Positions 4,948 through 5,140 of a stretch of DNA of 13,606 nucleotides are shown here, piece after piece; the first letter of the stretch is position 1, and every line of letters begins with the position of its first letter. Source of the stretch: Candidatus Uhrbacteria bacterium (GTDB taxonomy: Bacteria; Patescibacteriota; Patescibacteriia; JACQRZ01). The notes beneath the pieces were generated by a model. That model was not told where the DNA came from and ran no database searches. It was given only the letters and a program-made list of their open reading frames with translations. The stretch lies in NCBI GenBank assembly GCA_016186045.1, contig JACPMJ010000018.1, positions 1-13,606 on the forward strand. Direction: 5' to 3'. A program made the translations under genes and the position numbers.

Positions 4948-5140
4948 CCTTAACGAGGCCGTTGCAAAACTCAGCTAAGCATGTCATTCCCGCGAAGGCG
5001 GGAATCCAATTCTTTTAATTTAAGAAGAATTCTGGATCCCCGATCAGAGCCTGTCCTCAACTTGATTGGGGATCTGGGATAACAATCGGAGGGTTTTGCA
5101 ACGGTCTCCTTAACGAATCTTTGCAAACCCCTTTGCAAAG
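4948..5140. repeat. MITE-like / structured element, copy 1 (~170 bp) with inverted termini CGTTGCAAAACTC / GGGTTTTGCAACG, plus flanking palindrome CTTTGCAAA-CCCC-TTTGCAAAG
   Basis: Left end CCTTAACGAGGCCGTTGCAAAACTC (4948-4972). Right end GAGGGTTTTGCAACGGTCTCCTTAACGAATC (5088-5118). Internal hairpins ATTCCCGC-GAAG-GCGGGAAT and GATCCCCGATC...GATTGGGGATC. Homologous to the element at 8521..8715. Confidence 0.55.

Follow-up and report, generated by a model that had tools for sequence, protein, structure and literature searches.

Two putative IS5-family miniature transposable elements with NTS/SRM-like hairpin cargo on a contig labelled Candidatus Uhrbacteria

Contig JACPMJ010000018.1 of assembly GCA_016186045.1, labelled Candidatus Uhrbacteria bacterium, carries two small non-coding repeats, here called copy 1 and copy 2. 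The stretch of DNA that we analysed, referred to below as the window, is the entire contig of 13,606 bp. Judged from sequence comparisons, both copies are very probably miniature inverted-repeat transposable elements (MITEs) of the IS5 family, with ISPg4/ISNme1-type ends and a cargo of hairpins matching the published NTS/SRM motif, mobilised in trans. An earlier note made from the letters of the sequence (the original prediction) had offered two possibilities, a non-autonomous transposon or a small structured RNA. The transposon is supported by terminal inverted repeats (TIRs), a target site duplication (TSD), the lack of coding capacity, many copies elsewhere, and a partner insertion sequence (IS); the RNA alternative did not survive the comparisons described below.

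Shared termini and an autonomous partner

Both copies are bounded by inverted termini of 18 bp, GAGRNCGTTGCAAAACYC, and their parts are listed in Table 1. Copy 1 had been proposed as a bounded non-coding element of ~170 bp; the element is real, and its boundaries are corrected here to 4955-5108, 154 bp. The 9-nt direct CCTTAACGA taken for its TSD is present at 4948-4956 and 5108-5116 but overlaps the TIRs: it is made up of the CTTAAC hexamer plus bases of the element ends and flank, and the true TSD is CTTAAC. Similarly, the palindrome CTTTGCAAA-CCCC-TTTGCAAAG noted after the element does exist at 5119-5140 but lies beyond the TSD and hence is not part of copy 1. The palindromic stretch beside copy 1 (5115-5145 of the window), GAATCTTTGCAAAC-CC-..TTTGCAAAGGATT, resembles the TIR variant GAGACCTTTGCAAAAC found at position 2227 of L015 (loci from our searches carry L numbers), which is of the ISNme1 type; the stretch is perhaps a TIR-TIR vestige left by a related element, or else the resemblance is due to chance.

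A diverged homolog with the same termini, claimed for positions 8521-8715, was confirmed as copy 2, with bounds refined to 8523-8706. Each of its TIRs matches the family consensus at 17/18 positions, and positions 4-5 of the TIR are diverged. Its CTCTA pair, the right-hand member of which is separated from the TIR by TCA, may be a TSD displaced by a small indel. Alignments of copy 2 with copy 1 in the two orientations were about equally good, and no relative orientation is assigned.

The recurrence of these ends exceeds chance. With up to two mismatches allowed, the 13-mer CGTTGCAAAACTC occurs five times in the window compared to 0.42 expected, a number reached in 0 of 200 shuffles, and four of the five occurrences are element ends. 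Both copies fold more stably on both strands than shuffled sequence does (z of -5.3 to -8.3), and alignment of the two interiors scores higher than shuffled controls in both orientations (z of 5.2 and 3.5). The open reading frames (ORFs) that overlap both copies are spurious frames without a domain, giving no coding capacity. Moreover, independent short-read assemblies break inside both copies: six contigs end at 5045, and in copy 2 contigs end at 8574, 8576, and 8628 and start at 8633, 8654, and 8655. Such breaks are attributable to repeats that tangle the assembly graph, so that an otherwise ordinary MITE explains why short-read assemblies fail at both points. Each insertion was seen in all samples with contigs extending to it.

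To identify relatives, we scanned 185,579 species genomes (one per species) with the two-ended pattern CGTTGCAAAAC-N(122-152)-GTTTTGCAACG. The output of 18 loci compares with a chance expectation of ~1-2 by our own arithmetic. Eleven loci, from metagenome-assembled genomes (MAGs) labelled Uhrbacteria, Dehalococcoidia, Chlamydiae, Gammaproteobacteria, Rikenellaceae, and Crocinitomicaceae, contain the extended TIR GAGACCGTTGCAAAACTC with short flanking duplications. Six others (L007, L010, L017, L018, L022, and L023) lack the extended TIR and were rejected as chance matches or unrelated palindromes, and L008 was set aside as ambiguous. The exact 18-mer was found in 99 metagenome loci. Pairing of ends across genomes and metagenomes yielded 45 non-redundant small elements of 86-253 bp from many phyla, and a perfect TSD flanks 25 of them (5 bp in 16 and 6 bp in 9), while permuting the right flanks among elements gives an expectation of 0.53 five-base matches. 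In the partner TIR, which was not the bait, the consensus base is kept in 71-100% of the elements at each position, a minimum that rises to 85% for positions 1-16. Nested insertions were seen in L015 and L095, and other MAGs hold two to three copies on the few contigs examined (L009/L019, L012/L016, and L020). These ~45 small elements with the same termini elsewhere bear out the original claim of a repeat family.

Outside this set, viral contigs were scanned with the two-ended pattern, with TIR plus hairpin, and with a single TIR, which gave only one chance match inside coding sequence (L006); a literature search for the TIR strings returned only unrelated primers, and copy 2 and one type C MITE had no blastn match on plasmids. 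In L095 (558-785), a 59-bp minimal TIR-TIR element (558-616) is followed directly by a full MITE. The palindromic site CTCAA(C/G)TTGAG recurs as the insertion point of several elements (flanks of L074, L051, L052, and L099), suggesting that insertion favours this target, within other copies or next to them.

The same 18-bp TIRs also surround 12 elements of 1264-1362 bp, each with a single ORF of 358 aa. The encoded proteins are 45-100% identical among copies; the 18-bp ends are kept, and the DNA beyond the ends diverges. Pfam detects DUF772 (PF05598, 1.6e-20) and DDE_Tnp_1 (PF01609, 5.1e-20) in the 358-aa ORF, which identifies it as a DDE transposase. JGI names its relatives 'IS5 family transposase', and most of them occur on contigs of ~1.3 kb, as is characteristic of multi-copy repeats that have collapsed. 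An additional locus, L074, combines the same ends with a more distant transposase (27% identity) and an AACTT duplication. The search for an autonomous partner proposed in the original prediction was therefore successful, the partner ISs lying in other loci and not in the window. Published termini agree: Table 2 of PMC4596501 gives ISPg4 as GAGACTGTTGCA, ISPg1 as GAGACCATTGCA, Neisseria ISNme1 as GAGACCTTTGCAAAA, and the right end of MITE464 as TGCAACGGTCTC, in which GAGACCGTTGCA equals the first 12 nt of the window TIR. All four belong to the IS5 family and have associated MITEs (PMC4596501), and the GAGAC..TTGCA-type TIR of ISPg1, ISPg4, and ISNme1 is matched by the family ends. The near-identical published IS5 termini account for the breadth over which the end sequence is found and, together with the partner IS, point to the window elements as MITEs of this IS5 lineage.

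Several observations weigh against this assignment. A domain scan of the window ORFs agreed with the original prediction in finding no transposase domain in any ORF scanned, on a contig of only 13.6 kb; the partner ISs are known from loci elsewhere and not from the same cell; and only two copies, both on this contig, have been seen in this organism. The nearest NCBIfam models of the 358-aa protein are IS1182 (167 bits, cut-off 270) and IS5_4 (133 bits, cut-off 140), and it falls below both cut-offs; its identity to IS5 transposases on sequenced plasmids is at most 30%, and by these comparisons it appears to be a divergent lineage. With the exception of L074, the full-length ISs found have no TSDs and sit on contigs of 1.3-2.9 kb, and the missing TSDs are probably due to chimeric flanks on such very short, collapsed-repeat contigs. 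Finally, the TSD length of the small elements is mixed, 5 or 6 bp, and copy 2 is without a clean TSD.

We propose that a 358-aa DDE transposase (DUF772 plus DDE_Tnp_1), supplied by a full-length element in another part of the genome or in the community, would bind the GAGACCGTTGCAAAACTC ends, excise or copy the element, and insert it through a 5-6-bp staggered cut, which would account for the TSD of copy 1. With both TIRs at 17/18 to the consensus and a perfect TSD, copy 1 looks young and still mobilisable; copy 2 looks older and decayed, given its diverged TIR positions and displaced TSD. The retention of the 18-bp end where the transposases are only 45% identical makes it a specific probe for this cross-phylum IS5 lineage and its MITEs in metagenomes.

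Table 1. Features of the two elements and RNA genes of the contig
Feature	Position	Strand	Sequence	Basis
Copy 1, whole element (154 bp)	4955-5108	.		TIR pair by pattern search; RNA fold -76.6 kcal/mol, z -8.3
Copy 1, left TSD	4949-4954	.	CTTAAC	Identical 6-mer abutting both TIRs
Copy 1, left TIR	4955-4972	+	GAGGCCGTTGCAAAACTC	17/18 vs family consensus GAGACCGTTGCAAAACTC
Copy 1, NTS/SRM-like hairpin	4982-5009	+	TGTCATTCCCGCGAAGGCGGGAATCCAA	Stem 4986-4993 : 4998-5005; loop GAAG
Copy 1, central AT-rich hairpin	5008-5031	.	AATTCTTTTAATTTAAGAAGAATT	Predicted stem-loop
Copy 1, second, decayed hairpin arm, inverted	5032-5083	-	GGATCCCCGATC...GATTGGGGATC...GGGATAAC	Predicted hairpin
Copy 1, right TIR	5091-5108	-	Reverse complement GAGACCGTTGCAAAACCC	TIR alignment; 17/18 vs consensus
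Copy 1, right TSD	5109-5114	.	CTTAAC	Perfect 6-bp match to left TSD
Copy 2, whole element (184 bp)	8523-8706	.		TIR pair; fold -78.8 kcal/mol, z -7.9
Copy 2, possible left TSD	8518-8522	.	CTCTA	Abuts left TIR
Copy 2, left TIR	8523-8540	+	GAGAGCGTTGCAAAACTC	TIR alignment
Copy 2, SRM hairpin	8547-8575	+	TGTCATCCCCGACTCGATCGGGGATCCAG	Exact match to published SRM search pattern
Copy 2, central AT-rich hairpin	8575-8591	.	GTATTTATTTTAAATAC	Fold prediction
Copy 2, inverted SRM-like arm, expanded loop	8601-8681	-	GTCATTCTCGGGC...GACCCGAGAATC (minus strand)	Fold
Copy 2, right TIR	8689-8706	-	Reverse complement GAGAACGTTGCAAAACTC	TIR alignment
Copy 2, possible right TSD	8710-8714	.	CTCTA	Same 5-mer, 3 nt past right TIR
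tRNA-His	648-721			Contig RNA gene
tmRNA	13205-13554	-		Rfam, 103.6 bits

An NTS/SRM hairpin doublet as cargo

NTS, the Neisseria target of the Ssn GIY-YIG single-strand DNA nucleases, has the consensus CGTCATTCCCGCGMAVGCGGGAATCYRG (PMC11893778); the nucleases were first characterised in 2025. Positions 4982-5009 of the window match this consensus at 26/28 positions. The SRM pattern of the same paper, HGTCWYN(0-2)YYVSBRHN(0-5)WNVSBRGN(0-2)RNCYNB, has its sole exact match in the window at 8547-8575, inside copy 2, with 0.045 matches expected, and 4982-5009 misses it at the last base only. Thus, the gtcatYcccg core reported earlier as shared is present in both copies but is not private to the family, being part of a widespread NTS/SRM hairpin.

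Both window copies are laid out as end, hairpin, AT-rich hairpin, inverted hairpin, end. Copy 1 had been credited with two strong internal hairpins; hairpins are present, but three are predicted by folding (4986-5005, 5008-5031, and 5032-5077), not two. Its arm at 5032-5083 aligns with the SRM hairpin of copy 2 in inverted orientation (inverted repeat I1). The inverted arm of copy 2 contains GTCATTCTCG on the minus strand at 8672-8681 and, by eye only, is similar to NTSvar, CGTCATACTCGGG-N5-CCCGAGTATC (PMC11893778). By sequence comparison, the cargo is not IS-derived and consists of an inverted doublet of NTS/SRM-matching hairpins around an AT-rich hairpin.

The hairpin is found well beyond the elements. 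When copy 1 was searched with blastn against plasmid-labelled records, the hairpin alone matched and the ends never did. Perfect matches to it of 26-27 nt occur in Azospirillum, Photobacterium, and sphingomonads, and in Neisseria gonorrhoeae and Legionella longer stretches match at 84-88% identity; two N. gonorrhoeae records each contain at least 40 matching places. NZ_CP119140.1 and NZ_CP119142.1 are 2.17-Mb N. gonorrhoeae records labelled plasmids and are evidently chromosomes. Free-standing intergenic doublets without IS5-type ends occur in Legionella adelaidensis (L134, 401-497), with an AT-rich spacer between the two hairpins equivalent to 5008-5031 of copy 1, and in N. gonorrhoeae (L137, 25271-25375 and 39016-39121), where 50 kb contain no IS5-type ends; the type A cargo is likewise free-standing in Novosphingobium pNL2 (L136, 153-238). 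The free doublet has the form CGTCATT-stem-AATCCAG, spacer, CTGGATT-stem-AATGACG, that is, the same modules as the MITE cargo. The cleanest example of a hairpin doublet inside transposon ends is L101, of 129 bp.

At least four unrelated types of interior occur within identical termini. One, GTCATTGCGAGGAGC...GCAATC, is carried by ~12 elements; GTCATYCCCGCGAANGCGGGRATCC is shared by the two window copies, L015, L101, and L057; CCTGAGCCTGTCGAAGG is found in ~6 elements; and there are several others. In L123 (~5270-5700 and 7515-7658), a 97-aa single-domain GIY-YIG gene (Pfam 6e-14) is flanked by GTCATCC...GGATCCC and GGGATCCC...GGGATGAC, the SRM-gene-SRM layout described for ssn, and lies 1.8 kb from a MITE end with cargo starting GTCATCCCGACCGGAGG. 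This was the single GIY-YIG gene returned by a crude regex screen of ~650 kb of related loci, which does not show a general linkage between MITEs and ssn, and no ssn (cd10448 GIY-YIG) gene was found near the copies among window ORFs of at least 60 aa.

These data leave room for a broader, tentative proposal, which we consider possible rather than probable: IS5-type MITEs may serve as vehicles for Ssn hairpins, a constant 18-bp TIR frame repeatedly acquiring doublets (NTS/SRM, GTCATTGCGAGG, and CCTGAGCCTGTCGAAGG) that DDE transposition would then spread within and between phyla, candidate phyla included. If true, this would couple two repeat systems that have been described separately and provide a mechanism for the unexplained NTS/SRM expansions. 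If the coupling is functional, it would offer a testable route by which hairpin repeats multiply and cross lineages and would mean that a bacterium labelled Uhrbacteria carries a target of the Ssn type. Any action of an Ssn nuclease on these hairpins in the organism itself is speculative.

Alternative explanations and the setting on the contig

A small structured RNA family (a small RNA or a cis-regulatory element), in which the terminal stem and three hairpins would constitute an RNA fold closed by the TIRs as a helix, is highly improbable. The fold is very stable (z of about -8), both copies are intergenic, and the plus strand of copy 1 folds 15 kcal/mol better than the minus strand, two TIR mismatches being G-U pairs on the plus strand; nonetheless, copy 2 folds equally well on both strands, and no promoter-like site is placed to drive either copy. 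The hairpin stem has two compensatory pairs: among five sequences of the shared hairpin, there were two double-sided changes with 97% of cells paired, and 8 of 500 shuffles were as good. All of these compensatory changes, however, are Watson-Crick and fit a DNA hairpin equally well. Furthermore, the elements are flanked by TSDs, and the same termini bound a transposase gene. The original prediction had itself named conserved termini around unrelated interiors as evidence against an RNA, and this is the pattern found: the termini are fixed, while the interiors are unrelated between genomes. No Rfam family matched; at a permissive threshold the window yielded only tmRNA, tRNA-His, and chance matches, and the sole overlap with the elements, MIR7991, was a sub-threshold chance match (22 bits versus a gathering threshold of 58; E of 0.95). 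With interiors that differ and Rfam empty, a conserved RNA family is unsupported.

It is also unlikely that the hairpin doublet itself is the functional, mobile unit, a REPIN-like repeat propagated or kept in place by an enzyme specific for hairpins (a RAYT-type Y1 transposase or an Ssn GIY-YIG nuclease), with the IS5 ends incidental, as they would be if, for instance, the doublet had entered a minimal TIR-TIR element. Such a unit would fit the doublets without TIRs in L. adelaidensis and N. gonorrhoeae and the similarly free type A cargo of Novosphingobium, the variety of cargo within one TIR frame, the 59-bp TIR-TIR element of L095 that is nearly devoid of cargo, and the proximity of the L123 GIY-YIG gene, with its GTCATCC...GGGATGAC flanks, to an SRM-bearing MITE end. 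On the other hand, the TSDs abut the TIRs and not the hairpins, which indicates that the insertions of these two copies were defined by the TIRs; the window has no GIY-YIG or Y1 transposase gene, and the crude filter left one GIY-YIG ORF in the related loci. No enzyme is known to transpose SRM doublets, for which PMC11893778 offers a hypothesis only.

A third possibility is compatible with the IS5-family MITE reading and concerns present function: elements that are MITEs by origin might now act for the host as a transcription insulator, a terminator, or an mRNA-stabilising stem-loop, which we regard as doubtful. Copy 1 is intergenic, between convergent genes and beside their terminator hairpins. 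Copy 2 is intergenic between two minus-strand genes, the stop of a 306-aa gene (8764) and the promoter-like site (8512-8484) of a 215-aa gene, from which it is separated by 11 nt. The hairpin at 4986-5005 scores as terminator-like, and the presence of both insertions in every sample reaching them is in line with a retained role. Yet the number of terminator-like structures in the region, 6 versus 4.4 +/- 2.2 in shuffled sequence, is not above expectation, and selection against gene disruption predicts intergenic sites anyway.

Other classes of repeat were considered and rejected. The termini do not fit the GTTRRRY of integron attC sites (core RYYYAAC...GTTRRRY), and the window has no integrase. 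Clear TIRs and a TSD, and the lack of a reverse transcriptase or cas gene in the window, speak against retron msr-msd and CRISPR. TIRs and a TSD likewise exclude an IS200/IS605 PATE, which has subterminal hairpins without a TIR or TSD, and REPIN/RAYT; neither TnpA/TnpB nor a Y1 transposase is encoded in the window. Overall, the window ORFs (those of at least 60 aa for the GIY-YIG domain scan) contained no integrase, reverse transcriptase, GIY-YIG nuclease, cas, TnpA/TnpB, or Y1 transposase.

The genes of the contig include a major-vault-protein-like gene, two TrmB-type regulators, a split AAA_14/DUF4143 ATPase, a RelE/ParE-like toxin, and RtcB. The tmRNA was found by Rfam and missed by ARAGORN. 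The 582-aa protein encoded at 819-2567 (minus strand) combines shoulder and repeat domains of the major vault protein with an SPFH/Band 7 domain. The AAA_14/DUF4143 gene lies in two overlapping ORFs (3624-4454 and 4441-4839), the first of which covers DUF4143 profile positions 1-49 and the second positions 81-160, a split suggestive of a frameshift or a pseudogene.

Further repeats were noted. A terminator-like unit consisting of ACCCCATRAAARCATCTCC, a variable inner hairpin, and then GGAGGTGTTTTTRT occurs in four copies (716-756, 3514-3576, 4858-4926, and 7041-7081), each directly 3' of a plus-strand gene (tRNA-His, TrmB, DUF4143, and TrmB, respectively); between the first and the last, identity is 93% over 41 nt. 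The four units represent either a terminator cassette that has been conserved or a further family of small repeats. A tRNA-His-anchored genomic island between the 41-nt repeats at 716-756 and 7041-7081 was rejected because the repeat is one of these units, and no integrase was found between the two. An exact 27-nt repeat, AAATAAAAAACCTCCAGCATCTTTTTT, occurs at 7645-7671, between the plus-strand toxin gene and a minus-strand gene, and at 8716-8742, just downstream of a minus-strand gene and abutting the right flank of copy 2. Finally, a ~70-nt repeat (12167-12235 and 12805-12874; 81-88% identity) precedes each of two neighbouring minus-strand genes of unknown function, 30-40 nt upstream of the start codon. 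Within the repeat are the palindrome ATACCACGTGGTAT and the pair CTATCAGA...TCTGATAG, and it may be a shared promoter or operator.

Comparison with known systems

Correia elements (CREE/NEMIS) of Neisseria are structured MITEs of ~100-150 bp with TIRs, are intergenic, and can affect transcription and RNA processing. Their TIR sequence differs from that of the window elements, and their TSD is TA; we know of no autonomous partner for them, whereas one was found here. REPINs resemble the window elements in being inverted doublets of short palindromic repeats that form a long hairpin and occur in multiple intergenic copies. To our knowledge, they have no TIRs beyond the REPs and no TSD. They depend on a Y1 (IS200/IS605-like) RAYT, and the REP leader is GTAG-type, in contrast to GTCAT here. 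REPINs and RAYTs are said to go back to work by Bertels and Rainey in 2011 and by Nunvar in 2010.

The closest counterparts are the IS5 MITEs with GAGAC(C/T)NTTGCA ends: MITEPgRS/MITE464 and BrickBuilt of Porphyromonas gingivalis, with the partners ISPg1, ISPg4, and ISPg9, and the Neisseria ATR, with the proposed partner ISNme1 (PMC4596501). The right end of MITE464 agrees with the window TIR over the first 12 nt, and the ISNme1 terminus agrees at 14/15 positions; ISPg1 and ISNme1 were compared with the partner IS by terminal sequence. Like these MITEs, the window elements are small, non-coding, and intergenic, with a core unrelated to the parent IS ('type II' MITE), and like BrickBuilt, whose cargo is a 23-nt minisatellite, they hold a trapped foreign repeat. 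They differ in that the cargo is an inverted NTS/SRM hairpin doublet, the conserved TIR is 18 bp rather than the 12-15 bp reported, and the host is labelled as the candidate phylum Uhrbacteria. TSDs of BrickBuilt are variable, with 2-nt 'CT' and 4-nt 'GAAA' among them (PMC4596501), compared to 5-6 bp here.

With the NTS/SRM repeats of PMC11893778, the window elements share the hairpin sequence, the oriented GTCAT leader, the inverted pairs, and the spread across phyla. Those repeats are located on either side of ssn genes or stand alone between genes, and that paper describes no TIR or TSD for them; this contig has no ssn gene, and the hairpins are enclosed by IS5-type TIRs and a TSD. The window elements thus appear to be of a known kind, the IS5-family MITE, with a new twist, a doublet of Ssn recognition hairpins as cargo.

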